A stretch of 38,830 nucleotides of DNA from a virus (Duplodnaviria; Caudoviricetes): positions 1-38,830 of IMG/VR virus record IMGVR_UViG_3300048851_000195; one strand, written 5' to 3'. Positions 3,344 to 35,173 of the stretch are shown piece by piece; within the stretch, counting starts at the first letter, position 1; each line of letters begins with the position of its first letter. Made by a program: the position numbers and the translations under genes. The notes under the pieces are model-generated. The model saw only the letters and a list, made by a program, of their open reading frames with translations. It made no database searches and was not told the DNA's origin.

Positions 3344-3347
3344 CTTG

Positions 3348-8853: not shown

Positions 8854-8885
8854 TGGGGGTTGTCTCCCTCTTATTGTTGTTCAGG

Positions 8886-15036: not shown

Positions 15037-15049
15037 CCTTTAATCAAGC

Positions 15050-15079
15050 CTCCTGGGTTTTCTTTTATTTACCCAGGAG
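15050..15079 (-). promoter_or_regulatory. TAAATA box inside an SD-occluding hairpin
   Basis: CTCCTGGGT...ACCCAGGAG arms (15071-15079 and 15050-15058) flank TAAATA at 15066-15071. Confidence 0.7.
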
Positions 15080-15107
15080 ACCTGATTGGACTTGCGCGGC
15101 AGAGCCG

Positions 15108-17972
15108 TTAGTTGAAGCTGATGAACTCCGGCGGCAGCAATTCCTCGTCGCTTTCGCCGTAGATGAACTCATAGGTTGCGGTAAGCGCAGCGCTGCTTTC
15201 ACCAAACGTGTTGAGGGAGCGGATTGTAAACTGGTGGACGCCTTCGGTCGCGTTCTTCACCTGAGCAAAGCTGTTCGGACCTTTGTAAACGTCTTCCCAG
15301 GTTGTGCTACCTGGACGCTTTACCTGACAGTGATAGCCCTGGAAGAGCATGTTGTAATCAGGCTCGATGTCATCCCACGACACCTGGATCTCATGCTCAG
15401 GGAAGCCAAGCTGATTTACCCAGCTGTGACCCTTGGCCTTGAAGCCGGTTGGAATTGGCGTGCGCGGGTTGAGCTGCGTCCACTTGCTCTCGGTGACAGG
15501 CACGTTGTCATCGAAGAAGGCATACTTGCCCTCGATGTGGAGCGATCCCTTGACGCTGTAGGAGCCGAAGCCGTTCTCGGTGACTTCATGGATCGTGAAC
15601 TGACGGGGCTGAACACCACCAACCTGCACGATGCCAATGGGCGTGTCTGCATCAACGCCGGTTGTGTCCACCGTGACAAGATCGGTTGTCGTATCGGAGT
15701 TCCAGAGCACGACCGGACGCACGACCAGCTTGTTATCGCGGATCATGTGGGCGTTGTAGGAAGCGCCAGCGATCACCGGAATTGGGTTGTCCAAGCGCAG
15801 CTGGTTTGAGCCAACAATCTCCGCAACGCGGCCTGTGGGCACCTTGCCGGTCCTCGTCCAATCGTCAATTTCGATGCGCTGACCAGCATAGTAGCCAGCA
15901 GCCGCTAGGCTCGTCTCAAACTCGACAGTGACGTTCTCATTTTGCGCGGTCCACACCAGCATACGCGCAAAGTCGTAGGCTTCCTGCTCGTTGGTGCAGC
16001 CCAGCTTGGCCACCGTCTGGCTGATGATGCCGTTGTTGGCCAAGCCGCGCGCACGATTGCGCGCAATGCTCTCTTCGTCACGATAGCGAACGCGACGGGT
16101 GCGGCCATAATCCTCGGTATCCTTCCACTCGACCACGCACTCGTTGATTTGCTCGCGCAGTGGAGCGGAGCCGTACTTGAACACGCCATCTGTGACGGCT
16201 GCGTTGTTGACGTAATGGTCGATGTTGCCGGTTGGGCGATCCTGATAAAGCTCAACCTGACTACCGTTGAAGAACGGAATGGCGCGGAATGTCTGTGCCA
16301 CTTCCTTGAGGCGGCTCCAGCCGTCCTGCTCGTCATTGATCTGCACGTTGAACGAAAAGCGCGGACGACCGTGGACTGTCTCGTCGCAATACTTGGCTAC
16401 GTTGAGCAGCTTGAACACGCTGAAATAGCTGTCTGGATAGCCGCAACCAATCTGCTTGTTGGTGGCCAATTCCAGCCAGTGCCATACCGGATTGCTCGTT
16501 ACCGCGTATTTCCATGCACCGGACCAAACACCCGAATAGGTGCGTGCCACTGGATCGTAGTTGTCGGGAACGCGGACCTTGCGGGCCTGCATAATGAGGG
16601 CAATCTCAGGATAGCTAGTGCTGTCGAAGACCTCTAGATCGAGAGCAGCCGCGAACAGCGCGGTTGGCACTTCTCCGTTGCTGCCATCGTAAGCAAGCTC
16701 AATGTCCTTGTATTCCACAAAGCCGTTGAACGCTGCCGTGTTCTGGAGCTTGTCGTCGTTGCTGTCAGGGGTGATCCTGTAGAGGCGGAAGGACCAGCCA
16801 TCCTGCTCGTTGCCGGGTGTCTTCGGCGGCGCGGTAACAGTCCACTCGCGCACGAATGCATCGCTGCTCTTCTCGTTGATCGAGAGAGTGCCGGCGGATT
16901 GCCATGCGGCTGCGCTGTCACGCTTGCACTCAAAGCCGACCTGGAGCGATGTGCGTTCCTGATTGCCTTTCTTGTCGGTCTTCACCAGCTGATTGACGCG
17001 GATACGGACCTTCACGCGGGAAACGTCTGCATCGCTGACAGGCTCAGTGCGGTACGAGACGCCACCACTTGGAGTGCGCGTTAGCTCGACGTTCCTGTTC
17101 TGGTTTGCAGGAATGCCCGGTGTGATCGGAACTGCGCTCTGGCCGGGAACGCCTGGACGCTCGGTCCATGCGAAGCCCTGGAAGTTGTACTGGCTCGTTC
17201 CACGGTCACGAAGCGGCACCTCGTTGATGAGGATGTGCTTCTCTTTTTCCTGCGTGGTCGCACCATAAATGCCGCCGAGTTCACCAGCACCGACCGCAGC
17301 GAGGACACTCAGGCGAGCGTTGCTCGTCGTGGTGTTGTTGATGGTTTTGCCGCCGCCCTTTTCGCCACGGAAGGCGTCTTGAATCTGCTTGCTGGGGCTT
17401 TCGCTTACCGCACCGTAGAGCGCTGCTTTGGCTGGGTTGATGTTACCCAAGCCGCCGTTGTTGGTGTAATCGACGGATGCTTCGATGATGTTGGAGCCGC
17501 AGAAGACCTTTTCGCCTGCCACGTAGGGCAGCACGATTTCCTCTTTCTGCGTGTTGAGGCTGCTGCCGTCATAGAGAACGCTCTTGCGCTTATCCTGCTC
17601 GCTGGTGCCGGATGGCATAAAGGCGTTGATGAGGATGCTGGCCGCGATGGAAGCGGCTGCGCTGATCGCAGCCGTGATGAGCATTGCGGTCGTGATTTCA
17701 TGGCCGTGAACGTGCGGGCCGATGTGCAGCACTGCATCAGCGGGAAGCTGCCAGCGTCCAGCTTGTTCAGCGGTGAGGCTCTTGCTGCGCTTGTAGTTCT
17801 TGCCTAGTCGGATTTCCCCCTTGCTGGTGTCCAGCAAGGATTTGATAGGAATAAGCTGCTCAAGAGCGTCTAGGACTTCCATGCAGGTGTTTGCGTGGAA
17901 ATTGACACCGCGCTTGTAGCCCTTGGGCATTGCATCGCGGAACGCGCCATGCAGGATGACTCTTACGGTCAT
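15108..17972 (-). CDS. Fused lambda-like tail tip protein I and central tail tip protein J (N-terminal part)
   Basis: N-terminal VRVILHG...LHIGPHVHG (gpI-like), then GEKGGG, VRVPDNYDPVARTYSGVWSG, SNPVW and PRFSFN (gpJ core). Confidence 0.88.
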   Translation of the reverse strand: MTVRVILHGAFRDAMPKGYKRGVNFHANTCMEVLDALEQLIPIKSLLDTSKGEIRLGKNYKRSKSLTAEQAGRWQLPADAVLHIGPHVHGHEITTAMLITAAISAAASIAASILINAFMPSGTSEQDKRKSVLYDGSSLNTQKEEIVLPYVAGEKVFCGSNIIEASVDYTNNGGLGNINPAKAALYGAVSESPSKQIQDAFRGEKGGGKTINNTTTSNARLSVLAAVGAGELGGIYGATTQEKEKHILINEVPLRDRGTSQYNFQGFAWTERPGVPGQSAVPITPGIPANQNRNVELTRTPSGGVSYRTEPVSDADVSRVKVRIRVNQLVKTDKKGNQERTSLQVGFECKRDSAAAWQSAGTLSINEKSSDAFVREWTVTAPPKTPGNEQDGWSFRLYRITPDSNDDKLQNTAAFNGFVEYKDIELAYDGSNGEVPTALFAAALDLEVFDSTSYPEIALIMQARKVRVPDNYDPVARTYSGVWSGAWKYAVTSNPVWHWLELATNKQIGCGYPDSYFSVFKLLNVAKYCDETVHGRPRFSFNVQINDEQDGWSRLKEVAQTFRAIPFFNGSQVELYQDRPTGNIDHYVNNAAVTDGVFKYGSAPLREQINECVVEWKDTEDYGRTRRVRYRDEESIARNRARGLANNGIISQTVAKLGCTNEQEAYDFARMLVWTAQNENVTVEFETSLAAAGYYAGQRIEIDDWTRTGKVPTGRVAEIVGSNQLRLDNPIPVIAGASYNAHMIRDNKLVVRPVVLWNSDTTTDLVTVDTTGVDADTPIGIVQVGGVQPRQFTIHEVTENGFGSYSVKGSLHIEGKYAFFDDNVPVTESKWTQLNPRTPIPTGFKAKGHSWVNQLGFPEHEIQVSWDDIEPDYNMLFQGYHCQVKRPGSTTWEDVYKGPNSFAQVKNATEGVHQFTIRSLNTFGESSAALTATYEFIYGESDEELLPPEFISFN

Positions 17973-18712
17973 TTGATCCTCCAGAATTGAACAGCAAATC
18001 GCTCTAGGAACTGCTCCTCGTTGTTATGAATCCAGTGCTCGGAGGTTCGATTCTCCAGCTGGTGCAAATAGGTGTTCTCACCCAGGTAAACTGCGCAGTG
18101 GTTCAGAATGGGCTTCTGAAAATACATGAGCGCTAGGTCGCCGGGCTTGCGATCATCGCGGTTGGCTACGCGCTTGAAGCCCAGCCGACTTGGCCAGTAG
18201 CCAAACGGGTTTTGTCCGCGTGGGTGCGCGTGATGAGGGCCAGGTTCACGGACGCGGGGAATGATCGCGAGCGGCTTGCCCTGCTCGTGATAATAATCCT
18301 CGCAGAGCGTCCAGCAGTCGCGGACACCCCAAAGATAGGCTCGGCCCAGCAAGGGTGGTCGCGGGCGCAGCGGGCCAATGAACTCGGGCTCCGCTACATG
18401 CGTGACGCCGAACTCGTTGCCGGTGATTGCTACGACGCCCCAGGTGTACCCGGATGCAATCTGCTGTTCTGTGTCGCGGTCGCTTGGCTCGGCCGATCCA
18501 TTGGGATGGCTGTGGAGCAGGACCAGCGGTCGGCGCTCGTCGAGTAACGCAACGTCACTCTGAGTGAGTTCAAAGCCGTAGAGTGGATCTGACGCGACGT
18601 TGGTTAGCTCAAGCCAGCTGCCATCGTCATAGACGGCAACGACTGCCTCACGCGGCCAAGCGCGGGCAAAGATCGGCCTAATTGCGGCCCAGGTCTTATC
18701 AGGTACAAGCAC
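17969..18712 (-). CDS. Tail tip protein K (JAB/MPN + NlpC/P60)
   Basis: PRE, HSHP...PSDRD (JAB); GVRDCWTL and NHCAVYLG...YLH (NlpC/P60). Confidence 0.92.
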   Translation of the reverse strand: MLVPDKTWAAIRPIFARAWPREAVVAVYDDGSWLELTNVASDPLYGFELTQSDVALLDERRPLVLLHSHPNGSAEPSDRDTEQQIASGYTWGVVAITGNEFGVTHVAEPEFIGPLRPRPPLLGRAYLWGVRDCWTLCEDYYHEQGKPLAIIPRVREPGPHHAHPRGQNPFGYWPSRLGFKRVANRDDRKPGDLALMYFQKPILNHCAVYLGENTYLHQLENRTSEHWIHNNEEQFLERFAVQFWRIK

Positions 18713-18716
18713 CTGA

Positions 18717-18722
18717 TATTTA
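18717..18722 (-). promoter_or_regulatory. TAAATA box, leaderless start
   Basis: GG-TAAATA-TCAG-GTG. Confidence 0.7.
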
Positions 18723-18741
18723 CCGAGGGGGAGGCTCTACC

Positions 18742-19257
18742 TTGTTCTGTCCAAGCGCTGTTGATTATGGAAACGTAGCTGACTGGTTTGCAGCCGTTGG
18801 CAGTATCACCGTTGGTAGTGCGGCGTTCTATGTTGCTTGGAAAGAGCGCCAGCGAGCGTTAGCGGCAGAGGATCGACTGGCATTGTTTGAAGCGGAGCGG
18901 CACAATGACCTTATTGTGCCTGCGCTTAGGATTATCCAGCAAGTCCAAAGTGCCACGATAGTTTTTCAAGATGTAATTGAGCGCGGAGACGACTCGCTTG
19001 CTAGGCGGCAAAGCTGGTTAAGAGTGCTTCGTCAGTCTCAAGAAAGTGCTCTACGGCTTCAACAATATCCGTATGTTGGTGCTGAGCTATTCGCCGAGTA
19101 CGAAGGCCTGGCAAGGGCGGTGGACATCAGCGACGATATGCAACAGTGGCCTGCTGAGAGTCTGGTGCGACACGCAGAGCATGTCATGGACGACACGGAC
19201 AGGCAGAAGGGCGTTCTGGTCGAAATGGCGGACAAGCGCGCTGTCCTGAAATGGTAG
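18742..19257 (+). CDS. Opposite-strand moron with N-terminal membrane anchor
   Basis: GGAGG RBS before TTG 18742; YGNVADWFAAVGS...FYVAW anchor; fills the gap between L and K. Confidence 0.7.
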   Translation: MFCPSAVDYGNVADWFAAVGSITVGSAAFYVAWKERQRALAAEDRLALFEAERHNDLIVPALRIIQQVQSATIVFQDVIERGDDSLARRQSWLRVLRQSQESALRLQQYPYVGAELFAEYEGLARAVDISDDMQQWPAESLVRHAEHVMDDTDRQKGVLVEMADKRAVLKW

Positions 19258-19258
19258 C

Positions 19259-19783
19259 TTAGTCCGAGGCGCGCAGGTTGCTTCCCAGGCCGGGATAGTG
19301 CTCGCGGTACATTTTGAAGCTGGGCACCTTCACACCGCCGAAATCCAGGTGCGTTGCGAGATTCAGGTTCACGCTCAGCTGTCCGCTGGTAACGCTGTCC
19401 AGAAGGTATTCGTACCTTGCGATGGCCGCCTGTTCGTTGCCTGAAATAACGTCCTCAGCGAGCGCCTGATAGCGGATTACCTCTGCGCCAGGAGCGTTGC
19501 CGATTTCAGCCAAACGAACAGCCAGTGCGCCCATGAAGTCTGGCACCTCAATGGAGGGCTGAGCTTTGTTCTCACTGGAGCGCTGCCAACCGCCTGTGGT
19601 GAACGGATAGCACTGCCAATCCTGATTGTTCCAACGGACTGTGCCAAGCTCAGGAAGGTCTAGCCCCTGATCGGATAGCGGCTTGCTGTTGCAATAGCGG
19701 AGGATCGAGCCAGCCCAGGGAGTGAGGTCCAGGCTCACGAACTCGACAAGGCCGTCCCAGCGGGTGGTGTTCAGCTGTGTCAT
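19259..19783 (-). CDS. Minor tail protein L-like
   Basis: VEFVSLDLT...LRYCN...WNNQDWQCYPF...GAEVIR; conserved M-L-K-I-J position. Confidence 0.8.
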   Translation of the reverse strand: MTQLNTTRWDGLVEFVSLDLTPWAGSILRYCNSKPLSDQGLDLPELGTVRWNNQDWQCYPFTTGGWQRSSENKAQPSIEVPDFMGALAVRLAEIGNAPGAEVIRYQALAEDVISGNEQAAIARYEYLLDSVTSGQLSVNLNLATHLDFGGVKVPSFKMYREHYPGLGSNLRASD

Positions 19784-20121
19784 AGGCGTTCAAAGCCAGC
19801 TGTGACCTGCACCAGCTGTCCCTTGTCGGTCTGGATCTCACGGAAGCCATAGGAGCCGGTAGCGCGAATTCTAACGCTGCCCATGATGTTGCAGGTGTAA
19901 TCGTACACCGAGTTCATCTTGCCCGCCTTTAGCGTCTGGACGAGTGCGCGAGCGTCGTCCTTGGGCAACATCCACGAGAGAGTGGCAACCTCACGGCAGG
20001 GCGCAAACCCGATTGTACCGCGGATCGACAATGCGCCGGTTTTCTTTTCGACGTTGGCCGTCTCGCCCTGCCAATCAATCGACAGGAGCAAGTTGGGCTG
20101 AAATGGTAGTGCAGTCGCCAT
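19780..20121 (-). CDS. Minor (distal) tail protein M-like
   Basis: Size, position after the tape measure gene, and C-terminal VTAGFER. Confidence 0.7.
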   Translation of the reverse strand: MATALPFQPNLLLSIDWQGETANVEKKTGALSIRGTIGFAPCREVATLSWMLPKDDARALVQTLKAGKMNSVYDYTCNIMGSVRIRATGSYGFREIQTDKGQLVQVTAGFERL

Positions 20122-22958
20122 TAACGGATACCTCGCTTCTTCGCCCAGGCATCCATCGCGTCCATCTGTTCGCGCTGCTGCTGAGCCATCATCGACTTCA
20201 CCTGCGCCTGGACGTCCTGATTGACCGGGCCATTGAAGTGCATGTGTGTTTCGCCGAAGCTGATGGAGGCCGAAGCACCGCCCAGAGCGCGACGAGTTTG
20301 GTTTGCGTTGAACACCGTTCCTGCTGCGCCGAACTTGACCAGTTCCGCGCCGCCTTCACCAACAGGGCGAATGTCGCCGGCTTTGACCGAACCACCTGTT
20401 GCGCGGCCCGCGCCGATACCCAACGCACCGCCAACAACCGTCTTGAGCAGGCCACCAATGCCGCCACCGCCACCTAGCTTGTCGCCCAGGAGCGCAGCCT
20501 TCAGGATAGCTTCAATCAGGCGCTTCATTAGGTCCTGGAAGAACTTGCGCATCGTCTCCTTGGGGTTGTCCCAGAGGTTCGTGAGGAAGTCGCTCAGCTG
20601 CTCAACGTGCTGGCGCTGACGATCCAACACCACGTTCTGCTTGTCCTGCGCGGCCAGCACATTCTCAGTTGCGACCAGTTCAGCGCGACGGGCTTCGGTG
20701 ATGCCCTCAAGCGCAGTGATCTTCTCGATGTTGGCTTGGCGATCGCGCTCAATTTGTGCGACCGCGCGAGCATCTTCCGCCTTCTCAGGATCGGTGCGAC
20801 CAAGAGCAGTGAACTCCTGTTCCTGCTTGCGTGCGGCCTGATCGCGCTCAACGTCCTTGAGAGCCTTGGCGTTTTCCTTGGCCTTCTGGAGATTGTAATA
20901 GGCTGCTGCCTGTGCGTCGATTTTGCGCGTTAGGTCAGTCGTGATCGCTAGGTCTTCTGGCAGGCCAGCACGACGGCGGGCTTCAACCTGAGCAAGCTGA
21001 ATCTGACTGTAACCGAGTTCACGAATGGACTTGTCGAAGTCCTTCATGATCTCCGTTACCTTCTTCTGCTGCTCTCCGTCCTTTAGGTCTTTGAACAGGT
21101 TGCGAATCTCGTTCGCCTTCTCGCCGGTGAGTTTGATGTCGCGCTTGAGACCGGCACGCTCCATCTCATCCGCTAGAGCCTTCTGCTCTTCGGTAAGTGC
21201 TAGGTCTGCAATGCGGTTCTTGAGGTTGGTGACAGCTTCCGCGTACTTCTTCGCGTCTGCCTCTGCCTTCTTCTGCTCGTCGGACTTGTCCTTGTTCCTG
21301 TTCTTGTCGTTCTTACCATCTGGTTTCGGGGGAGGCGCATCAGAGCCACTGTCTAGCTTAGGAGCAACGCCGCCTATGCCACGCAGACGGTTGATTGTAC
21401 GACCAGCGCCCTTCTCGTCGGCGTAGATGTTGCTCGCGTTGGTAACGACACCACCGACGACGCGACGAGTGTTCGAACCAGCGCCCTTCGCGACGCCCTT
21501 TGCAGCACCCACGGCCTTCTGCAGATCGCCTAGCGAACGTGCATTCCAGACCATCGAAATGACGTTGCCCAGCCCACGGAACATGGCCGAAATGTCGTTG
21601 ATCGCTGCGGCGAAAATCTGCGGCAGCGACAGCGCCACGTACTTGGCAGCACGCAAGATGCCCACGATGCTGTTTGCCCAGCTGCGACCACCCTGGTTGA
21701 AGCTGATGCCCATCCAATTCAGCAGCGACCCGATTGATTCAGCAATGAAGCTGCGGACTTTGCCGATGATCGAGCCGATGGCACCGAACACGGCACCAAC
21801 GATGGAGCCGAGAACCGTCACACCCTGGCCGAGCAGGTTGAATGTGATTGTCAGCGCTTCAAGCACGCCTTGCAAAGCGCTCGCATGTCCCGCCCCCTGA
21901 GACATTTGGCCAAGACCGTTCAGCACGTTACCGACGCCCTGAATGATGCCGCCGAAGAGGTTGCCAATTGACGCGAAGAACGGAGTTAGGAGGCTGATGC
22001 CGTTGGCGATGCCCTTGGCAATCTCCTTCACGGCAGTACCAAGCGCACCTTCACCGATGGCGCTGAGCATCTGTTGCGTGTTGTCTGCGACGTTGCTGAA
22101 CGCGCCGTTGAGCGAGTCCATCTGCTTGGCCATCGCACCACCGAAAGTGGTCTTGCCGATGTTCTCCAGGTACTTGGTAATCTCGGTGCTGTTTTTAGCT
22201 ACCTTCGTGGTCACGCCCTGGAACGTGAAAGCGACCTTATCGCCTTCCGTTTTGGACTTGATGCCGAATTCCTTGAGGCGTTCAAACTCGCCAGTGGAGG
22301 CGTCTGCGACAGCCTCAATCATCTGATTGAGGCTCTTGCCCATGGCCGATGCGGTGTTGCCGAACGAGGTTAGGCGTTCCTCAGTGGCAGCAAGGCCCAG
22401 CATCCTGAGCTTGTTGAAAGCGTCAACGGACTGGCCGAGGTCGAATGGCGTTGTGGAAGCGAACTTGACGAGCGCGGCGTAGGTTTCCTTCGCCTTCGTG
22501 CTCGACTTGGTGACAGTCTCAAGCTGGCCCATCCATTTCTGGGTCTGGGCTGCTGCCTTGATGGCTTCCGATCCAACGGCTGCGATTGCGAGCGCGACAG
22601 TGCCGATCACAACGGCAGTCGGACCCATCTTCGTGAGGCTGGATACTAGGCCGCCGACTGCTGGCGTTGCGCTTGCTGCGCGGGAACGAACCTCGTCCAT
22701 CGCTGAGCCGATTGCGCTGCGGATCGAGCTAGAGGCGCGTTCGGTACCGCCCTGCGTCTCGCGCATCTGGCGGTTGAAGCCGTCCAGCATTGCGCTGCGG
22801 ACTTGTACGTTTTGAATGCGCTGGAGCGATGCACGGATGGCGCTGCTATCGCGGTTGGTGATTGTTGCTGTCTGGCGTACTTTCGCCATCAGCTGGTCGA
22901 AGGCGCGGTTTACCTGCGTGTTATCAAATTGAGCGCGGTAGTTTAGGGTGTCTTCCAT
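20121..22958 (-). CDS. Tape measure protein
   Basis: FASTTPFDL, AVADASTGEFERLKEFGI and RATGGSV...VGEGGAEL; 945 aa, Ala/Gly-rich. Confidence 0.95.
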   Translation of the reverse strand: MEDTLNYRAQFDNTQVNRAFDQLMAKVRQTATITNRDSSAIRASLQRIQNVQVRSAMLDGFNRQMRETQGGTERASSSIRSAIGSAMDEVRSRAASATPAVGGLVSSLTKMGPTAVVIGTVALAIAAVGSEAIKAAAQTQKWMGQLETVTKSSTKAKETYAALVKFASTTPFDLGQSVDAFNKLRMLGLAATEERLTSFGNTASAMGKSLNQMIEAVADASTGEFERLKEFGIKSKTEGDKVAFTFQGVTTKVAKNSTEITKYLENIGKTTFGGAMAKQMDSLNGAFSNVADNTQQMLSAIGEGALGTAVKEIAKGIANGISLLTPFFASIGNLFGGIIQGVGNVLNGLGQMSQGAGHASALQGVLEALTITFNLLGQGVTVLGSIVGAVFGAIGSIIGKVRSFIAESIGSLLNWMGISFNQGGRSWANSIVGILRAAKYVALSLPQIFAAAINDISAMFRGLGNVISMVWNARSLGDLQKAVGAAKGVAKGAGSNTRRVVGGVVTNASNIYADEKGAGRTINRLRGIGGVAPKLDSGSDAPPPKPDGKNDKNRNKDKSDEQKKAEADAKKYAEAVTNLKNRIADLALTEEQKALADEMERAGLKRDIKLTGEKANEIRNLFKDLKDGEQQKKVTEIMKDFDKSIRELGYSQIQLAQVEARRRAGLPEDLAITTDLTRKIDAQAAAYYNLQKAKENAKALKDVERDQAARKQEQEFTALGRTDPEKAEDARAVAQIERDRQANIEKITALEGITEARRAELVATENVLAAQDKQNVVLDRQRQHVEQLSDFLTNLWDNPKETMRKFFQDLMKRLIEAILKAALLGDKLGGGGGIGGLLKTVVGGALGIGAGRATGGSVKAGDIRPVGEGGAELVKFGAAGTVFNANQTRRALGGASASISFGETHMHFNGPVNQDVQAQVKSMMAQQQREQMDAMDAWAKKRGIR

Positions 22959-22960
22959 CG

Positions 22961-23007
22961 CAGTAGGCGCCTCCTGATTATCGTCAGGTATTTAGCGGCG
23001 CCTACTG
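22961..23007 (-). promoter_or_regulatory. TAAATA box inside an RBS-occluding hairpin
   Basis: 11-bp arms CAGTAGGCGCC / GGCGCCTACTG (22997-23007 and 22961-22971) flank TAAATA at 22989-22994. Confidence 0.75.
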
Positions 23008-23017
23008 TGGTGAAGGA

Positions 23018-23221
23018 TTATGGAAGCTGCTGTTGAGCTTTCATTCGGCGCTGTAGTTCTCGTGGTGAGATTGGTTCATTAACCTTTGCGCCGTTCAACT
23101 CCATCTGCCCGATGATGGTGTTGAGATATTCATTCCAGGTGGTCTGGTCGATTTCGCTGGGCTGAATGTGCAGTTGCATTAGGTTAAACCGAGCGGCCTT
23201 GAGGCGGCTCAGTCTTGTTCC
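23018..23221 (-). CDS. Tail assembly chaperone GT extension (-1 programmed frameshift)
   Basis: C CCA AAA AAG slippery site at the end of the G gene; the -1 frame is open for 67 codons to TAA at 23018. Confidence 0.8.
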   Translation of the reverse strand, partial: GTRLSRLKAARFNLMQLHIQPSEIDQTTWNEYLNTIIGQMELNGAKVNEPISPRELQRRMKAQQQLP

Positions 23222-23586
23222 TTTTTTGGGGCGTTTTCCTCTTCTAGCTGGTCGAAAGCAGCGAGGATTTTTGCTTCATCGCCACCCATCAGGGCACCGA
23301 TCAGGACAGCAATACGCTTCTGGAATTCCTGGGTGAGCATGTCGGAGACGTTCGAGAAGAACGCGTCGTAAATCTCCGCGCGGTCGTACTCGGTTTCAAA
23401 CTGGAGGTGGTAGAACACCTCGGTTAGCTCGCGTGCATTAGTGACAGCCTGAATGTACTCGATACCGTCCATGCCAACGGCTTCGGACAGTGCGTCTAGG
23501 CGCTCGAAATCGTTGCGAAGAACAATCTCGTTCTCGGCCCATTCAAAGGTCTTGGTGTTGGTGCGACGCTTTAGTAGTTTTGCCAT
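23209..23586 (-). CDS. Tail assembly chaperone G
   Basis: Acidic 125-aa ORF between the tail tube and tape measure genes, with a terminal slippery site. Confidence 0.85.
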   Translation of the reverse strand: MAKLLKRRTNTKTFEWAENEIVLRNDFERLDALSEAVGMDGIEYIQAVTNARELTEVFYHLQFETEYDRAEIYDAFFSNVSDMLTQEFQKRIAVLIGALMGGDEAKILAAFDQLEEENAPKKEQD

Positions 23587-23637
23587 TTTCTGGTTCTCCT
23601 TTGGGCCGGGTAGCGAACCCGGCCCATGGTGTTTCGA

Positions 23638-24069
23638 TTAGCTTCCTGCTGCTTCGTCCAGGTCCACTTCGGTCACAGGACCGGCGTTCTGGATGGTGTA
23701 GCTGCCGGTACGTGCGCCGACTGCTGGAGCACCAATCTCAGCGCTGGACAGGATGAAGTCACCGGAAATCCAGAGGTCTTCCTGATCGTAAACGCGAAAA
23801 GGCCAACGCTTGTTGAAAGCCTTGCGCATGTACGAACGAGCAACGTCGTCCAGGTTCTCTGCGGTGGTGAACTGAATTTCCCAAGACTCTTCGCCTGGAG
23901 CCTTGTAGGTGCCAGCCTTGATGGTCGAGGTCTGAACGTCAGCAGTGCGAGTGATAGTCGCTTCCTGCTCGTTCTCAATGAGTACGAAATCGGTATCAGC
24001 TGTAGCATCTGCGGACTTACCGATTTTGATTCGGGTGTCCTTGCTCAGCTTCTGGTTTACAGTTGCCAT
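23638..24069 (-). CDS. Tail tube (major tail) protein
   Basis: GGAGG RBS; position; beta-rich pattern ending SYTIQNAGPVT. Confidence 0.8.
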   Translation of the reverse strand: MATVNQKLSKDTRIKIGKSADATADTDFVLIENEQEATITRTADVQTSTIKAGTYKAPGEESWEIQFTTAENLDDVARSYMRKAFNKRWPFRVYDQEDLWISGDFILSSAEIGAPAVGARTGSYTIQNAGPVTEVDLDEAAGS

Positions 24070-24079
24070 AATCGACAAT

Positions 24080-24128
24080 CCTCCATAGCTATCACGGCAA
24101 ACGTTGCCGCTGGGTATTTAGCTGGAGG
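24080..24128 (-). promoter_or_regulatory. TAAATA box inside an SD-occluding hairpin
   Basis: CCTCCAGCTA upstream arm pairs with TAGCTATGGAGG (SD); box at 24115-24120. Confidence 0.7.
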
Positions 24129-24142
24129 TCGTGCGACTCTTG

Positions 24143-24496
24143 TTAGAGGCGGCTCATGTAGATGATCGAAGGAATGCGGAACCTGTTGCGCGCGTTATCC
24201 GCTTCTGGCTGATTGACCATTCCATTTGTGAGAATGACAGGGCTGCGCTGGATGGTGTTGAGGACCGTTCGTGCAACGGGGAGAGCATCGACGCTCATGT
24301 CCTCGGTCACGAAGTTGATGTTGACGCGCCAGCTGTCCTGCTTGTCGTCCAAGCACTGGAAGCCGTCTAGGTAGATGCAGGGAAACTGCTCTGGAAGCTC
24401 GGTGAATAGCCATTCCTCACCCATGTACGCAGCAAGATCGGGATTACCCTCAACGAGCGCAGTGATGTGGGCTGCTAGATCGTGAAACTGGCTCAT
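24143..24496 (-). CDS. Tail terminator-like protein
   Basis: ELPEQFPCIYL motif and position before the tail tube gene. Confidence 0.7.
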   Translation of the reverse strand: MSQFHDLAAHITALVEGNPDLAAYMGEEWLFTELPEQFPCIYLDGFQCLDDKQDSWRVNINFVTEDMSVDALPVARTVLNTIQRSPVILTNGMVNQPEADNARNRFRIPSIIYMSRL

Positions 24497-24834
24497 TTCA
24501 TACCCTTTCGTACTTCGTCCAGGATGCGCTTCTTGAGCTTGTCCTTGGTCTGATCGAGCGCGGGTTGCATGAAGGGCTGAGCGGCCATCTTCGTTGTGCC
24601 GTGCTCTACGTGTGGCGCGTGGGGAGCCGCTGCAAACACGGTGACGCCCGTTGCATCCACTTCGCCGTCGATGCTGTCGCGGAGTTCACCAGTAGCAACA
24701 GGAGCAAGCGCCTTGGCCGCTGGTTTAAAGTCCTGCTCAAGCCAATCCTTGCCAGCCTTGGCCGGTGCCTCGTTGATAGCCCTGCGCGCTTTCTCAAGCC
24801 GAGCCATAATGCGGTCGAAGCCATCAAAGCTCAC
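24493..24834 (-). CDS. HK97 gp10-family tail completion protein
   Basis: APVATGELRDSI and VEHGTTKMAAQPFMQPA. Confidence 0.92.
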   Translation of the reverse strand: MSFDGFDRIMARLEKARRAINEAPAKAGKDWLEQDFKPAAKALAPVATGELRDSIDGEVDATGVTVFAAAPHAPHVEHGTTKMAAQPFMQPALDQTKDKLKKRILDEVRKGMK

Positions 24835-25147
24835 TGGCGACGACCTCGCTCAGCAAGTGGTTTGCGCCTGCGCCGGTCTGGTCTAGCTTGACGATCTGGT
24901 AGCGCTTGTCCTGGACAGTCAGCACACCGTTTTCGACGTTGCGCTCACTCCAAGTGACCAATGCTGTAATGGTGGCGGGCTTGCCTTCACCGGGCACGTT
25001 GCGGCTCTTGATGAGCACCCAAACGTCAACCGTTTCGGTCTGTCCGGTCCTGTTGAGCGCCTTGCTCGTGAACGTGATCGTACCGCGCTCAGCGATCTTG
25101 CTGAGCTTGTCCGTGATCTTTGCGCGTGATGCGCTCCAATCTGCCAT
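24824..25147 (-). CDS. Head closure (stopper) protein
   Basis: Size and synteny between the adaptor and gp10-like genes; overlapping stops and starts. Confidence 0.65.
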   Translation of the reverse strand: MADWSASRAKITDKLSKIAERGTITFTSKALNRTGQTETVDVWVLIKSRNVPGEGKPATITALVTWSERNVENGVLTVQDKRYQIVKLDQTGAGANHLLSEVVASEL

Positions 25148-25530
25148 CAGCGCACCACACGCATTGCGACGATGCCACCGGAGCGACCGGCCATAAGCGG
25201 GCGCAGCAAGGAGGTGACGAGCGGGTAAGGATCGGCAGGAGTTTCGCTGTACTCGAATTCCTCGACCAGCACGCCTGCGGTGTCCTCTTTGCTCTTGAGG
25301 ACTTGGCGTTCCTGCTTGAGCGCAGGAGGGTTGGTTAGGAACTCCAGTGCGAGCAGGCAGAGCGCCTTAACCAGCAACGGATGATCCGTTGGAGTGTCAG
25401 CCCGCAAGCTGTAAACTGCCTCAACGTAGTCTTCTGCTCGTAGGATAGCAGCCGACTTCTCGGCCTCAGTTCCTTCCCAGGCTTCGTTGTTACGGGCTAG
25501 GTGGAATGCGTCTGCAATCTGTGTTTCCAT
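25147..25530 (-). CDS. Head-tail adaptor (DnaT-like annotated family)
   Basis: ADAFHLARNNEAW...KSAAILRAEDYVE...VTSLLRPL; follows the capsid gene. Confidence 0.8.
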   Translation of the reverse strand: METQIADAFHLARNNEAWEGTEAEKSAAILRAEDYVEAVYSLRADTPTDHPLLVKALCLLALEFLTNPPALKQERQVLKSKEDTAGVLVEEFEYSETPADPYPLVTSLLRPLMAGRSGGIVAMRVVR

Positions 25531-25534
25531 CTGC

Positions 25535-25540
25535 TATTTA
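25535..25540 (-). promoter_or_regulatory. TAAATA box, leaderless start
   Basis: GG-TAAATA-GCAG-ATG. Confidence 0.7.
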
Positions 25541-25576
25541 CCGCCCTAGGGACGGTAGACAGACCTGGAGGACGCG

Positions 25577-25738
25577 ATGAGTTTTCTTGATTGGCTGTTC
25601 GGTGGCGGAAGCGGTGGCAAGAGCAGCAATGAGCGCTTGCGACAGGGAACGGGTCGGTACGGTCGGAAGGGCCAGTACCGAAAGGTGCGGAACGGTGATC
25701 GCGTGGGACGCGGCCCGGATGGACGCTACAAGAAGTAG
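25577..25738 (+). CDS. 53-aa basic Gly/Arg-rich protein (opposite-strand moron)
   Basis: GGAGG RBS. MSFLDWLFGGGSGGKSSNERLRQGTGRYGRKGQYRKVRNGDRVGRGPDGRYKK ends just before a hairpin. Not in the ORF track. Confidence 0.65.
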   Translation: MSFLDWLFGGGSGGKSSNERLRQGTGRYGRKGQYRKVRNGDRVGRGPDGRYKK

Positions 25739-25747
25739 TCGCAGGGA

Positions 25748-25771
25748 AGCCCCGCTGTTGCCAGCGGGGCT
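25748..25771. terminator. Terminator hairpin after the capsid gene
   Basis: AGCCCCGCTG-TTGC-CAGCGGGGCT. Confidence 0.75.
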
Positions 25772-25789
25772 CCTGTTTGCATTAGTCGA

Positions 25790-26758
25790 TTAAGCGGTTG
25801 GGTTGCTCAGGCTCGACTTGATGAACGCGAATGGGAGGTTCTTAGCTTCGAACTTGACCTGCCAGTCGTTTGCGTTTGCCTGCTCTGCATTGGTTGGCGA
25901 GAGCTTGCCGAGTTCGCCCACGAACTTGTGGCCAGCTGGTGCCAGGATGTACTGCGCACGAGTGGTCAGAACGTCAGCACCCGAGCCGTTACCGACCAGT
26001 GCCTTGCGGGTGAACTCCACAGCGTGCTTTGGAGTAGCGCGGCCCATTGCGAACGCGCCGTCAGCCAGCAGAGCCGAGGTGTAAACACCACCAGCGACAG
26101 GCATGCGGTCGTTGATGACCAGCTTGTAGCCGTAGTAGGTCGCAAAGCCGATGTTGGTCTGGGAAGCAGGAACGTAACCGTTGCCTTCTGCCTTCTGCAT
26201 CAGCGCGTGGACAGCCGAGTGAACCACGAGGGTACGGAACTTGTCCTTTGCGTCGCCGTGGGTCTGAGCAGCGTCGATGACCATGCTGCCGTCGAGCACC
26301 TTAGTGCCGTCGCCTGCGGTCAGACCGGTGTTCAGCTTCGCAACGCCGGTCAGGATCGCCATTGCGTGCTTGGTCAGATCGGTCGACCAGTAGTCGCCGA
26401 ACTTGTTAGCGATTTCGCCAACAACGTCCTTGCCGGAAACGATGGAAGCAACGTCCATTGCGCCGAAGGTCTTGGAACGCAGGTGGCGGATGACGCCCAG
26501 CTCGCCCATCGTGATTTCGCTGATGCCAGCTTCCTCAGCGAAGTCAGCGGACGCAACGTCAGCTTCGTCGGTTGCGAGAGGGTTGAAGAATGGAATGGTG
26601 GTCAGCTGACCCTCACCAGCAGCGCGCGAGTTATAAAGCTCGTTGCTGACGATGACGCCGGCCTGAACCAGATTGTTCTTTTCAGTAGTGGCCTGATTGA
26701 TTAGACCAGCATACACGTTGTCGTCGTAGACGAGCGTGCTTAGATCGGTAATTGCCAT
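25790..26758 (-). CDS. Major capsid protein
   Basis: LVQAGVI, TIPFFNPL, IANKFGDYW, VVHSAVH and YKLVINDRMP; follows the scaffold gene. Confidence 0.92.
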   Translation of the reverse strand: MAITDLSTLVYDDNVYAGLINQATTEKNNLVQAGVIVSNELYNSRAAGEGQLTTIPFFNPLATDEADVASADFAEEAGISEITMGELGVIRHLRSKTFGAMDVASIVSGKDVVGEIANKFGDYWSTDLTKHAMAILTGVAKLNTGLTAGDGTKVLDGSMVIDAAQTHGDAKDKFRTLVVHSAVHALMQKAEGNGYVPASQTNIGFATYYGYKLVINDRMPVAGGVYTSALLADGAFAMGRATPKHAVEFTRKALVGNGSGADVLTTRAQYILAPAGHKFVGELGKLSPTNAEQANANDWQVKFEAKNLPFAFIKSSLSNPTA

Positions 26759-26826
26759 AGGTATCCTCCATGTGGATTACGCCGACCCACAAAGAGGAGC
26801 CGGGGGAGCGATTCTTGCTTCCCCGG

Positions 26827-26832
26827 TATTTA
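26827..26832 (-). promoter_or_regulatory. TAAATA box for the capsid gene
   Basis: AA-TAAATA-CCGG, followed by a structured leader. Confidence 0.7.
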
Positions 26833-26856
26833 TTCGGATGAGTGTCTTGGCTCTGT

Positions 26857-27486
26857 TCAGCCGAGTAGGTGAGTCATGCCCATTTCAGTTGCTAGTTCCC
26901 TAGCAAGGTCTGGGTTTTCCTTCTTGATGTTCAGGTACTCGGTTGCGTTGAAAGTCTCCTTGGTCATGCGCTGTGGCTTCGCGGGGGTTGAGCCGGTCGA
27001 GCCAACACCGCTCGACGCAGGAGCGTTGACGTAGAAGCTGCCTTCCTTGCTGCCGAAGAACTCCTTGGCGTAGTCGCCAATCGCAGCACCGTTGATGTTA
27101 GCTTGCTTGGTGGAGTCGTCGTACTGTGCCTGACGGAGCAAAAGTGCTTCCACGGCAGGGACGAGTTCAGGACGCACGTTGCCAGCAGCAATTGCGCTCT
27201 TTACTTCGTTGTCCAAACGGATGGTGCGTAGATCACCCGAGAGAGCGTCACGCTCTGCTGCAAGGGCGTCGTACTTCTTCTGCCACTTGGCTTCCAAACG
27301 CTTCTCCAGCGCTTCCAAGTTACCGGACTGACGCTCCGCTTCCTCTGCGGCGGCTTCGCGTGCCTGCTCTGCTTCTTCGGCGCGCTGTTCAGCGAGCTTG
27401 AGGCGGCGTACCAGGTCAGCGTTCTTGTTCTTGAGACCGGAAGTGTCCTCGGTCGAGGTATCCGTGATGGTGGTGTCTGTAGTCAT
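26857..27486 (-). CDS. Head scaffolding protein
   Basis: SGLKNKNADL coiled-coil region and C-terminal APASSGVGS linker; lies between portal and capsid. Confidence 0.88.
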   Translation of the reverse strand: MTTDTTITDTSTEDTSGLKNKNADLVRRLKLAEQRAEEAEQAREAAAEEAERQSGNLEALEKRLEAKWQKKYDALAAERDALSGDLRTIRLDNEVKSAIAAGNVRPELVPAVEALLLRQAQYDDSTKQANINGAAIGDYAKEFFGSKEGSFYVNAPASSGVGSTGSTPAKPQRMTKETFNATEYLNIKKENPDLARELATEMGMTHLLG

Positions 27487-27487
27487 G

Positions 27488-27581
27488 TAATCCTTTCAGC
27501 CCGAAGCTATCTAGGTTGCGGCCGAACCGCGGTTTTGCTGGCCGAACCAGCATTCCTATTTAGCGTTCGGGCTAAGGATTA
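27488..27581 (-). promoter_or_regulatory. TAAATA box, long-range SD-occluding arms and three UUCGG-loop hairpins
   Basis: Box at 27557-27562. TAATCCTTAGCCCGAA pairs with TTCGGGCT-GA-AAGGATTA. Confidence 0.7.
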
Positions 27582-28997
27582 GAGGGTTGGTGCTTCTGGA
27601 GCAGTCGGGGCAATGGTATCTCGTGCAGCTGAAGCGTTCACAACTTCCGGCTCAACCGCTGCCTCTTCCTTGAGGCGCTTTTGCTCTTCCTCATAAGTCA
27701 GCGTTTCGTCGTAAACACCACCATCGCGGAGCTTGTAGAACATGCTCCTGTTGCTGAGCTTCCTAGCTTGGTTTAGACCCAGAAGAGCGGTGATTTCCTG
27801 CGGACTCATGTTGCTTGGCAGGTAGTCGGTGTTGATCTGGAAGCGGACGGTCGCATCGTTGTCGGTGAAAGCCGCTGCACGCTTCAAGGCGGTCTCCAGC
27901 TTCTTGCTGATCGTGTTCGCCAGCATGGCGAGCACGCTGTTCTCTGCGCCCTGGCGCACTGCTTCGGTTTCCGCTGCCTCGGCCACACTCTTTTGACGGG
28001 CTAGAATGCGGCTCGCGATAGCTGCTAGACGGTCTTCCAGAGCTTGCAGCTGGTGCTCAAGCGGAACGGCTGCATCCGCCGATACACTGATGACGTATGC
28101 CTTCGCTTGGGCGTCACTGAGCGTGAAAACACCACCCGGCGTCCACTTGATCTTTTTGCCTTCCTCGCCCTCGGTTCCCGACACGATCAGCATCGGCGAA
28201 ATGCCGAATAGGTGCTGGGTGCTGAGCAAGCCCTGGGTGACGTAGTGGTCCAGGTTGGTCCAGCATACGTTCTCCAGCGGCGGAGCACTCGGAGTGAAGC
28301 TGCCATCCGGGGTTACTAGGTCGAACGGGATTTCCTCTAGACGCTTGCCGTTTGCCACGGGCTCGTAGGTCTCGGTTGGATCTTCCCAGGCCGGAAACGC
28401 ACCATTGTCGCTCGCGCGGTACACATGGACGACCACAAGACCGTCAACTCGCTCAATGAGGTAAACGGTGCGCGCGTTTTCGAGCAAGCGCACGCGAATG
28501 GGCTGCTTGCGACCCTTCACAACCCCTGGGGTGCATTCCAGGATGGAAAAGCAGTCGTAGAAGTTGACGAATGGACGGATGCCCTCTTCGATAGCTGCGC
28601 CCTTACTCGATGCCTGGCCCACCGGATGGTCGGTGAAGTAGCCGTAGAAGCCGGAACTGAGGAATTCGCGTGCCGAACGACGGGCCAGCTCTTCCACGCT
28701 GTCTCCGTTGCTGCTGATAACGTCCTTGATCTCCCTGAGCGTGCCGGTTGCCTCCAGAACGGGCTCCTGGCGCATCATCAGGCCAACGATACCGTCATGA
28801 GTGCGGTTTGCAGCTGGGTAGAATGGAACGTACTTCTTGTAGGACAGGTATTCCTCGTCATTCATGTCCGAGAATGATCGTGGAAGGTAAGTCAGGCCCT
28901 TCTTTTTGACCGCATAGGTTCCAGAGATAACATCGCGACAAACCTGCCAACGCTCGTGCATCTCTAGAATTTCAGGTGTTGGCTCATTGATCTTCAC
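27579..28997 (-). CDS. Portal protein (DUF4055-type)
   Basis: TYLPR...EEYLSYKK...FYPA, RLEEIPF, PPLENV..TNLDHY and AETEA; follows the terminase gene. Confidence 0.92.
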   Translation of the reverse strand: MKINEPTPEILEMHERWQVCRDVISGTYAVKKKGLTYLPRSFSDMNDEEYLSYKKYVPFYPAANRTHDGIVGLMMRQEPVLEATGTLREIKDVISSNGDSVEELARRSAREFLSSGFYGYFTDHPVGQASSKGAAIEEGIRPFVNFYDCFSILECTPGVVKGRKQPIRVRLLENARTVYLIERVDGLVVVHVYRASDNGAFPAWEDPTETYEPVANGKRLEEIPFDLVTPDGSFTPSAPPLENVCWTNLDHYVTQGLLSTQHLFGISPMLIVSGTEGEEGKKIKWTPGGVFTLSDAQAKAYVISVSADAAVPLEHQLQALEDRLAAIASRILARQKSVAEAAETEAVRQGAENSVLAMLANTISKKLETALKRAAAFTDNDATVRFQINTDYLPSNMSPQEITALLGLNQARKLSNRSMFYKLRDGGVYDETLTYEEEQKRLKEEAAVEPEVVNASAARDTIAPTAPEAPTL

Positions 28998-29036
28998 GAA
29001 TGTACCTCGACAAATTATGTCAGGTATTTATTCGTG
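28995..29036 (-). promoter_or_regulatory. TAAATA box inside a hairpin covering the SD and GTG start
   Basis: Nested stems CACGAAT/ATTCGTG, TACCT/AGGTA and GACA/TGTC; box at 29025-29030. Confidence 0.75.
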
Positions 29037-29057: not shown

Positions 29058-30434
29058 TCAGCGGAAGATAGAGCCCCTGTTGGTGTTCACTGTAATGGTG
29101 CCCGAAGGACCACCGATTTTGAGAACCTCGGTTACACCCCAAACAAGTGCGTCCATGCGGTCAGGCGACTTCTTTGTGCCTTCCTTGTAGTCGCACATCT
29201 GCGCCTCAAGCTCTTTGAAGGTGTCGATGTGGAATACCTTGCCCTGGTGATATGCCATTGCGACAGGTTCAGCACGTAGCAGCTTGCCGCGTGTTGCATT
29301 GACCAGCTTAACCGGCAGGTTGCGTCGGTACTGACGGATGGTGTTCTCAACCATCGTGCCGCCGTAGTTTTTCTCAGCTACGATCAAGTCGGCGTTCCAC
29401 TTGTCATACATGACGCCGACTTCCTTGCTCCACTGCTCAGGGGTTCCCTTGATACTGGCGTCCTCAAGAATGTACGCGAGACCATCGGAGCCCAGACCCA
29501 CTACGCAGATGCCGGTGTGGTCGCCCTGATTGCCATTGCCGCCGCTGGGATCGACTGCGACCACAATGCGGAGGAAGAAATCGAGCGGCGGGCACTCCCG
29601 ATAGCGGAACATGCTCTTGCGGAAGAGCGCGTTGGGGTTGTCATCGCGCCATTGTCCCTCAAGGAAGCGCGAAGCCATATTGGGCGAGCCATCGTAACGC
29701 TCAGCAAGGCTGTCTAGGTAGCCTTTGGCGAGGTTGTCAGCGTTCTCATGCGCGGGCAGAAAAACGCTGCGCCACTTCTTCTTGTCCTTGAACGGCTTTC
29801 CGCTTTGCGGATGCTGCTTGGCCTTGAAGCAGAGGTAGTCCCAATCGCCCTTGGTGTCGGGATTGCAGTCAAAGAGCATGAGCGGGCGGCACATGACCAT
29901 CTGGCCGTTGGGATCGAGTACGACCTTGCCCGTCGAGGGATCGACCATCGGAGCAGTGTCGGCCATACGAGACGCCAGCTGCTGGATGACTTCGTAGTCC
30001 TGGACCTCGTTACATTCGTTGACCCATGCGGTTGCGTATTGAGCACCCAGCACCTTGTCGATGTTGTTGGGGTCCAGTCCCTCGAATACGATCTTGCTGC
30101 CGTTGTGGAACTGTACCCAGGACTCCGCGCGATTAACGTGAACTGCTTTGTTATCCAGGTATCCCGGATAAAGCATGTTCATGATTTCCGGGAAGGTGCC
30201 GTTGAACAGGTGTGCGCGGCAACTGCGCATGGTGAGACGGAAAATGGCGTGCTTTGTGCCTGGAAAGGCCAGTGCGCGTGCTGCAATCAGCTGAACGAAG
30301 TTAGCGCTCTTGCCGGATCGCGAGGGACCATACGCAAGCAAGTTCTCCACATAGGGGTCTTGCCAAGCTAGTGCGTTTACCTTGTCCTGTGCTGGATTAG
30401 GCGTGAATGTCTTGCGGTAAGGCTGTACTGTCAT
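29058..30434 (-). CDS. terL: Terminase large subunit
   Basis: Walker A GPSRSGKS, Walker B-like AWVNE, CNP motif and nuclease motifs VAVDPS and SPDRMDALVW. Confidence 0.95.
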   Translation of the reverse strand: MTVQPYRKTFTPNPAQDKVNALAWQDPYVENLLAYGPSRSGKSANFVQLIAARALAFPGTKHAIFRLTMRSCRAHLFNGTFPEIMNMLYPGYLDNKAVHVNRAESWVQFHNGSKIVFEGLDPNNIDKVLGAQYATAWVNECNEVQDYEVIQQLASRMADTAPMVDPSTGKVVLDPNGQMVMCRPLMLFDCNPDTKGDWDYLCFKAKQHPQSGKPFKDKKKWRSVFLPAHENADNLAKGYLDSLAERYDGSPNMASRFLEGQWRDDNPNALFRKSMFRYRECPPLDFFLRIVVAVDPSGGNGNQGDHTGICVVGLGSDGLAYILEDASIKGTPEQWSKEVGVMYDKWNADLIVAEKNYGGTMVENTIRQYRRNLPVKLVNATRGKLLRAEPVAMAYHQGKVFHIDTFKELEAQMCDYKEGTKKSPDRMDALVWGVTEVLKIGGPSGTITVNTNRGSIFR

Positions 30435-30438
30435 CCAG

Positions 30439-30444
30439 TATTTA
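30439..30444 (-). promoter_or_regulatory. TAAATA box, leaderless start
   Basis: CT-TAAATA-CTGG-ATG. Confidence 0.7.
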
Positions 30445-30547
30445 AGAAGGCAGAGCTATTCTTAGGATGACAGCCGCTTACAACGATGTTAGCAGCGGAC
30501 CACGTCCACTAGAGACGTTCTCTGGGGCAGAGACAAAAGGGGAAGTC

Positions 30548-31072: not shown

Positions 31073-31125
31073 GCGGCAGCGCGCAAACGCTGCTCCTTGA
31101 CGCTTTCCTGGGGCTCATTGACGCA

Positions 31126-31151
31126 AAAGGGCCGGAGTGATCCGGCCCTTT
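31126..31151. terminator. Bidirectional intrinsic terminator
   Basis: AAAGGGCCGGA-GTGA-TCCGGCCCTTT. Confidence 0.85.
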
Positions 31152-35168: not shown

Positions 35169-35173
35169 AAAGC

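Follow-up and report, generated by a model that had tools for sequence, protein, structure and literature searches.

Hairpins predicted to lock ribosome-binding sites on read-through RNA at T4-late-type boxes in a prophage family

In the 38,830-nt stretch of viral DNA analyzed here (the window; virus record IMGVR_UViG_3300048851_000195), several virion genes are preceded by a short TAAATA box that sits in or next to one arm of a hairpin, and the other arm covers the Shine-Dalgarno sequence (SD) or start codon of the gene. Why would a promoter-like box be placed where a longer transcript hides the ribosome-binding site? A preliminary description, made from the letters alone, proposed a systematic translational lock on read-through RNA, such that virion proteins are made only from RNA started at the box, and took the hairpins as independent support for the boxes being promoters. 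We examined the box, the predicted locks, and the likely 5′ end of the RNA in the window and in related loci.

The window element is a siphophage-type provirus (the record is classed as “provirus”), and its minus strand encodes the packaging, head, tail, and fibre functions. Its host is likely a sphingomonad, since its portal homologues, at 44 to 60% identity, are named from Sphingomonas, Erythrobacter, Sphingobium, and Novosphingobium. A search for a cultured relative found none, the best matches being 32% for the capsid, 34% over 89% of the length for the terminase, and 28% for the portal, with plasmids at 25%. Single-protein DNA-pattern scans recovered no close relatives, and none of 600 candidates was confirmed when host-genome contigs were scanned with the portal alignment. 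The relatives used below are 14 viral and 8 metagenome loci retrieved by portal alignment; several are duplicates, and because they are not independent genomes, p-values overstate significance. A held-out clade (G011/G012) was found via a small-RNA motif, and its head genes have no tblastn match to the portal, scaffold, or capsid of the window. A public contig of 44,277 nt is identical to window positions 14000 to 33000 and runs about 5.5 kb past the right end of the window; it possibly comes from the same source sample and is not independent of it.

TAAATA occurs 17 times in the window, against 3.85 expected, a count reached in 0 of 100 shuffles, and 15 of the copies lie on the minus strand. 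Across the relatives, the family box is TAA[A/G]TA. In 21 of 22 related loci, several of which are duplicates, the same genes have a coding-strand box ahead of them, and boxes also precede genes of the held-out clade; they are nearly absent from an outgroup at 32% identity (L014). Genes inside operons have no box. The replication and lysis genes are box-headed too, namely, the primase-like and helicase-like genes and, via the variant TAACTA, the endolysin gene. Some boxes lie between divergent genes, where no gene precedes them on their own strand (window 3278, 5807, and 38211, and back-to-back pairs in L024, L034, and L035), and one heads an ORF-less unit closed by a terminator-like hairpin.

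Once contexts were de-duplicated, 99 boxes preceded an SD-type leader, 48 preceded an ATG or GTG at 4 to 5 nt, and 70 were left unclassified. An SD core is present in only 4 of the 48. The SD-less genes are those for the small and large terminase, the adaptor, and a minor tail protein, with the start codon at +5 or +6 after the box. According to the spacing of ATG codons after 207 boxes, there are peaks at 4 nt (18 boxes) and 5 nt (21 boxes), while every other spacing has at most 6. In 19 of the 24 cases with the codon at +6, a pyrimidine occupies +5, as expected if the polymerase takes the first purine. The two bases flanking the box are most commonly AA, AC, or GC, the spacer after it is GC-rich and often 4 nt long, and no −35 information was found in 147 gene-heading boxes. 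The positions of the window features are collected in Table 1.

Table 1. Box-headed leaders, predicted locks, and related features of the window
Feature	Positions	Strand	Description
Primase-like gene	3226..3305	−	Box 3278-3273; TTGAAG 21 nt upstream; weak predicted lock, 3.2 kcal/mol
Endolysin, variant box	3338..3350	+	TAACTA 4 nt before ATG
Helicase-like gene	5781..5812	+	Box 5807-5812; TTGAAG element as at the primase-like gene
127-aa gene	8853..8891	−	Box 8891-8886; SD present, no predicted lock (0.4 kcal/mol); exception
Fibre lock	15034..15090	−	Stem of ~20 bp; 5′ arm 15090-15071, ending in box 15071-15066; 3′ arm over SD 15054-15049; ATG 15036
Minor tail gene upstream of tail tip J	18712..18722	−	Box 4 nt before GTG; predicted leaderless
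Tape-measure lock	22958..23007	−	Outer 11-bp arms 23007-22997 / 22971-22961; box 22994-22989, then inner CCTGA/TCAGG stem; ATG 22958
Tail-tube lock	24069..24129	−	Anti-SD arm upstream of and overlapping box 24120-24115, pairs with SD; ATG 24069
Head-tail adaptor	25530..25540	−	Box 4 nt before ATG; predicted leaderless
Capsid leader	26758..26832	−	Box 26832-26827; two hairpins; SD paired on box-initiated RNA; read-through lock absent (1.1 kcal/mol); exception
Scaffold lock	27486..27581	−	16-nt arm 27581-27566 pairs with 27505-27488 (third leader hairpin and SD); box 27562-27557; ATG 27486
Portal lock	28995..29036	−	Outer arm over GTG 28997; inner stem from box/spacer bases to SD; box 29030-29025
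Large terminase	30428..30473	−	Box 30444-30439; ATG 4 nt on; predicted leaderless
ORF-less RNA unit	31122..31333	−	~200 nt; box-headed; terminator-like end hairpin; between HTH gene and large terminase
HTH gene, variant box	31621-31616	−	TAACTA 4 nt before gene
Small terminase	35168..35179	−	Box 5 nt before ATG; predicted leaderless
80-aa gene	38172..38211	−	Box divergent from tyrosine recombinase; inner CCTGC/GCAGG stem over SD; 4.7 kcal/mol, z 2.4

We expressed a lock in the window as the extra free energy required to open the region from SD to start codon in an RNA with 50 nt upstream of the box, compared with an RNA starting at +5/+6, and as a control the untranscribed part of each leader was shuffled 30 times. 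Every arm first described at the five structural genes (portal, scaffold, tail tube, tape measure, and fibre), all on the minus strand, is present at its position, and RNAfold pairs the arms with the SD or start at all five sites, in stems longer than those originally quoted. The long form is costlier to open in every case, by 13.7 kcal/mol at the portal, 6.9 at the scaffold, 6.2 at the tube, 17.5 at the tape measure, and 17.8 at the fibre (z 3.1 to 7.6), each above 30 of 30 shuffles. In addition, the portal and tape-measure genes have an inner lock, absent from the preliminary description, in which CCTG, the four bases right after the box, pairs with the SD. The fibre stem contains two G-U pairs, and the scaffold stem, of 16 bp, encloses two inner hairpins. 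The tube gene more likely starts at ATG 24069 than at TTG 24078, judging from homologue alignment. Of the nine boxes that precede SD-type leaders in the window, two have no lock (the capsid gene and the 127-aa gene), and the tube and fibre leaders keep some predicted structure even when the arm is missing (opening costs of 8.2 and 11.5). In these foldings the box often lies unpaired within a loop, and many boxes, including most of the leaderless ones, have no consistent stem. At the large terminase, the ATG of read-through RNA is covered in the model by an upstream arm of 9 bp, and a similar arm is predicted in several relatives.

To extend the comparison to the family, 11 of the 99 SD-type leaders were excluded by hand for doubtful start assignment, leaving 88. 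Their median extra opening cost is 6.25 kcal/mol; it is at least 3 kcal/mol in 60 leaders and below 3 in 28, z is at least 2 in 47, and 35 leaders lie above all 30 shuffles. The value of at least 3 kcal/mol is reached by 11/11 portal, 7/7 tube, 7/7 fibre, 8/9 tape-measure, 8/13 scaffold, 4/13 capsid, and 15/28 other leaders, two of the tape-measure labels being assigned from ORF length and position. Under one fixed protocol, 50 box-headed short leaders have a median of 7.4 kcal/mol, with z of at least 2 in 32, versus a median of 0.75 and z of at least 2 in only 3 for 36 box-less genes. In the held-out clade the locks are weaker, with at least 3 kcal/mol in 11 of 21 leaders and z of at least 2 in 6 of 21.

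The arms themselves cannot be aligned: the anti-SD lies upstream of the box in some genomes and in the four bases after it in others. Since a MAFFT alignment of the portal leaders lost the register of the stem, covariation was assessed by exchanging the upstream parts between orthologues. A leader's own arm is stronger than those of its orthologues in 37 of 46 cases, with a median difference of 3.9 kcal/mol, indicating covariation between each arm and its leader. The stems differ in length, loop, and position, and the 3′ arm follows the SD at distances of 11 to 70 nt from the box. Pairing of the untranscribed bases peaks on the SD (0.77 versus 0.46 when shuffled); in the scaffold leaders (0.68 versus 0.43) it centers there even when the SD is 60 to 70 nt from the box.

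Where would an RNA have to begin to escape these hairpins? We scanned the 5′ end along 50 leaders. The mean opening cost is 13.9 at −30 and 8.8 across the box, declines between +1 and +4, and levels off at 5.6 from +5 onward. This unlock point coincides with the position of the start codon in the predicted leaderless genes. Shuffles, box-less controls, arm swaps, SD-centered pairing, and the +5 unlock point all support the systematic lock that had been proposed, as a prediction of folding models. The stronger proposal, that virion proteins are made only from box-initiated RNA, is too broad: most low-copy genes are predicted to be locked, but the capsid gene is predicted to be locked in only 4 of 13 genomes and operon-internal genes have no box. 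Likewise, the hairpins do locate a useful 5′ end, yet by themselves they do not separate initiation at the box from cleavage there.

A similar arrangement is known from T4. According to a review (PMC3014915), the late promoters of e, soc, 49, and I-TevI, the genes named in the preliminary description, lie within the DNA that encodes the 5′ strand of a hairpin, and the longer RNA hides the SD or start codon; the lock represses e 100-fold. The same review describes this arrangement for mobE of phage Aeh1 and implicates segB. In the open-licence literature, this review is the only paper that we found on late leaders that sequester ribosome-binding sites. The family hairpins resemble the T4 lock in that they are predicted to hide the SD or start on the long RNA, whereas a box-initiated RNA would lack the 5′ strand. 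In T4, the arrangement has been reported for a few genes with lysis, accessory, and endonuclease functions that early RNA runs across; in the family, it is predicted for most low-copy core virion genes of an integrase-bearing siphophage of 40 to 45 kb. Unlike in T4, the anti-SD of the family is often contained in the 4 to 5 bases between box and start, and other genes have SD-less starts. We regard the predicted lock as a systematic variation on the known T4 mechanism, used on many genes across a prophage family.

The box is also of T4 type. In PMC1524935 and PMC2988020, the T4 late promoter is given as TATAAATA at −13 to −6, with no −35 element, read by gp55, and that of Aeh1 as (a/g)C-TAAATA; gp55 alone is reported to give basal transcription on supercoiled DNA. 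The position −13 to −6 (PMC1524935) implies the same 5-nt spacer as that of the family box. A TAAATA core about 6 nt before the start with no −35 element, as expected of a T4-type late promoter, is what we find, with the start site placed by prediction. In Caulobacter phage Cr30, which encodes gp55, 16 of 43 structural-cluster genes have TAA[A/G]TA before them at a distance of up to 90 nt, versus at most 3 of 45 hand-picked other genes; the variants TAACTA and TAATTA give 1 and 2. The family box is therefore of the alphaproteobacterial T4-late type, with the same A/G tolerance as in Cr30. T4, Aeh1, Cr30, and the family share one short box with no −35, a 5-nt spacer, and AA, AC, or GC flanks. 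In contrast to T4-type promoters, the family spacer is GC-rich rather than AT-rich and often 4 nt long, replication and lysis genes are box-headed, and gp55 was not found. In Cr30 (L057/L058), 5 of the 16 box genes, late genes of the baseplate region, have the same predicted lock (z 3.5 to 10.8). On these folding models, T4-like phages may use systematic locking more often than has been described so far. It is also observed that boxes of replication genes have a second element, TTGAAG, TTCAGG, or TTGACC, 20 to 21 nt upstream (window 3279-3305 on the minus strand and 5780-5806 on the plus strand, L024 16359, L026 13914 and 11411, and L034 12817). This suggests a two-part promoter class or a regulator site; a search of Cr30 for the TTGAAG-N21-box arrangement found no counterpart.

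Three other explanations have to be weighed against initiation at a T4-late-type promoter. The box could be an RNA signal, at which an endoribonuclease cuts polycistronic late RNA about 5 nt after UAA[A/G]UA, releasing the lock and producing leaderless messages. Cleavage fits the +5 unlock point equally well, and it would agree with the box being often unpaired in a loop, with the capsid leader, whose first hairpin starts at +1/+2, and with no sigma gene having been found in the searched records. However, the boxes in divergent gaps have no same-strand gene upstream; the purine-start rule and the presence of the same degenerate motif before the late genes of the gp55-encoding Cr30 also argue for promoters, and such a nuclease was not recognized among 50 window and 130 relative proteins. 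Spacing, divergent boxes, purine starts, the ORF-less unit, and the missing −35 signal together favor initiation, as far as sequence can tell, and we regard cleavage as very unlikely.

Alternatively, the inverted repeats might act as DNA, either as supercoil-extruded hairpins that present the box to RNA polymerase or as recombination sites for cassette exchange. The former is how the virion-polymerase promoters of phage N4 are presented to their polymerase. Such roles would suit the foreign opposite-strand genes found just upstream of several boxes and the conserved small tyrosine recombinase, and the sense strand is more stable than the antisense strand in only 34 of 54 cases (p 0.10). Against them stand the free variation of the stems in length, loop, and position, with a 3′ arm that nevertheless follows the SD, the many boxes that have no consistent stem, and the G-U pairs within the fibre stem; this explanation strikes us as highly improbable. 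The boxes could also be ordinary −10 elements of host sigma-70 that lack T at −7, with the hairpins serving as pause, terminator, or stability structures. According to PMC8407463, over 80% of Novosphingobium sigma-70 promoters lack −7T, and in the family two replication boxes have a TTGA-like element upstream. The same paper places the start most often 6 nt from the −10 element and the −35 element at 17 nt in Alphaproteobacteria, in contrast to the spacing of 4 to 5 nt, the absent −35 signal, and the 21-nt offset in the family. None of the five hairpins was called as a minus-strand terminator, and we consider a sigma-70 origin very unlikely.

The promoter reading is based on the boxes in divergent gaps, the preference for a purine start, and the match to Cr30. 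We hold it to be probable that the boxes before virion genes are T4-late-type promoters that start RNA 5 to 6 nt on, that the modeled hairpins block ribosomes on read-through RNA, and that most box-initiated RNA is translatable. The anti-SD, whether upstream of the box or in the 4 to 5 untranscribed bases after it, would be present only in read-through RNA; an RNA arriving from upstream would fold over the SD and exclude the ribosome, and one begun at +5/+6 would lack the anti-SD and be translated. The SD-less genes, with their codon at +5/+6, would reach the same outcome, being translatable mainly from their own start. Each box-headed gene would then have its output set by its own promoter. 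With boxes stacked on one strand and few terminators, read-through in the lytic phase would come mostly from upstream boxes. For this reason the lock probably sets how much of each low-copy part is made, preventing overproduction of portal, tape measure, and fibre from stacked upstream late promoters, and it likely also keeps the lysogen silent to stray host transcription.

If boxes are read as T4-type late promoters, what reads them? The gp55 profile phrog_234 matched none of nine family records, while the Cr30 positive control gave an E value of 1.5e-50; a profile of three gp55 sequences reached at best E 2.2 in 11,034 six-frame ORFs, and phmmer with T4 gp55 reached E 0.06 in 2,459 ORFs. The searched records may be incomplete: G001, G002, and G004 start with a large integrase-cluster gene and look near-complete by gene order but are rated at 49 to 61% by CheckV, and the window ends about 5.5 kb short of the right end of its own contig. 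PHROGs and Pfam revealed no sigma factor among 130 and 107 selected non-structural proteins of relatives, and for a box-reading factor they gave only weak HTH hits (31327-31611) among window and relative proteins. In PHROGs, neither gp33 nor a sliding clamp (gp45) is annotated among 50 window and 130 relative proteins. PMC4621102 describes alphaproteobacterial T4-like phages with gp55 but without gp33. Structures were predicted for two conserved orphans, one encoded at window 4222-4953 (pLDDT 92.7) and the other by the gene that follows the tyrosine recombinase (pLDDT 78). No significant structural match was obtained for either, which neither shows nor excludes a role; the second has weak matches to PUR repeats (E 0.09).

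The box may thus be read by an unrecognized factor of the element or of the host, or by gp55 from a co-infecting T4-like phage. As the searches of nine family records yielded neither gp55 nor another sigma gene, the element may borrow the late sigma of a lytic phage. More broadly, complete Sphingomonadales prophages could have wired almost all of their lytic programme (replication, packaging, virion, lysis, and small-RNA genes) to a T4-like phage's late sigma that they do not encode, a tentative proposal about which we have some doubt. If it is correct, the prophage would wake only upon infection by a T4-like phage, and the locks and SD-less starts would make it deaf to host transcription, a “sigma-borrowing” prophage in need of no classical repressor. 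Under that proposal only, it would resemble the PLE satellites of Vibrio cholerae, which, according to PMC13595925, are activated by the transcription programme of the lytic phage ICP1, in that the expression of an integrated element depends on such a programme. PLE, as described there, hijacks phage components, whereas the window element has genes of its own for the terminase, portal, scaffold, capsid, tail, fibre, and endolysin and would borrow only sigma; it is not a satellite in the sense of lacking virion genes and taking them from a helper. Among open-licence papers, we found none on a prophage or satellite run by the late promoter or sigma of a helper.

In T4, the lock is known from few genes; in this prophage family it would amount to a design rule, kept by re-invention while structural modules were exchanged. 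Together, box and lock allow start sites (+5/+6) to be placed from sequence alone. They also raise the question of how T4-type late promoters are read in a temperate phage of 40 to 45 kb in which gp55 is not detected: such promoters would need either a new specificity factor or direct activation of the prophage by the sigma factor of another phage. Moreover, such compact box-plus-lock units could be used as parts that insulate genes from read-through.

The capsid and scaffold leaders have features of their own. The read-through lock of the capsid gene has a median of only 2.2 kcal/mol. In most genomes (window 26759-26826, minus strand), the capsid SD is paired in a hairpin lying wholly inside the box-initiated RNA, with a loop that often starts UCG, so that capsid translation requires an explanation other than the lock. 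The first hairpin of this leader, which leaves the SD uncovered, is likewise unexplained by the lock. The box-initiated scaffold leader (window 27487-27556, minus strand, and 12 relatives) forms three small predicted hairpins whose loop sequence is repeated within a genome and differs between genomes. These are perhaps a protein operator for autoregulation by scaffold, by analogy with P22.

The ORF-less unit of ~200 nt is also found in L001, L005, L006, L010, L020, L021, L042-L044, L047, and L048, with an invariant 18-mer. Its stems covary, with double changes in 13 of 40 pairs, making it a candidate conserved structured RNA; a search of the window against Rfam families found none, this RNA included. 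The bases that follow box 38211 are complementary to a segment of the 18-mer over 11 bp, G-U pairing included; a wider duplex scan was non-specific. We considered this RNA as a trans-acting key for the locks and found no support for the idea, the duplex energies being non-specific.

Several further observations concern the makeup of the element. A small tyrosine recombinase is conserved in 10 genomes; this gene and the conserved one downstream have no box, and a common motif like TCTGGTT/TCGGTT lies upstream (window ~38240-38305, plus strand, and 11 relatives). Complete relatives also encode a large serine-type integrase and DUF2958. Cargo genes on the plus strand lie directly upstream of boxes at window 18767-19257, 25579-25740, 30551-31072, 31927-33159, and 35213-36958; one of the cargo genes is an AbiJ/Abi_C-like defence gene, and G001 has a Shedu-like gene. 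One promoter per gene would render such opposite-strand insertions harmless. In L020 (~15980-16080), the tube leader is a perfect palindrome with no box, while the nearly identical L007 has the box (7651); the palindrome may be the product of template-switch repair or an assembly artefact at the hairpin. Finally, the end of the tail assembly chaperone gene (window 23222-23233, minus strand) has a slippery-type run, CCCCAAAAAAG, with a homologous downstream frame in relatives, as is ordinary.
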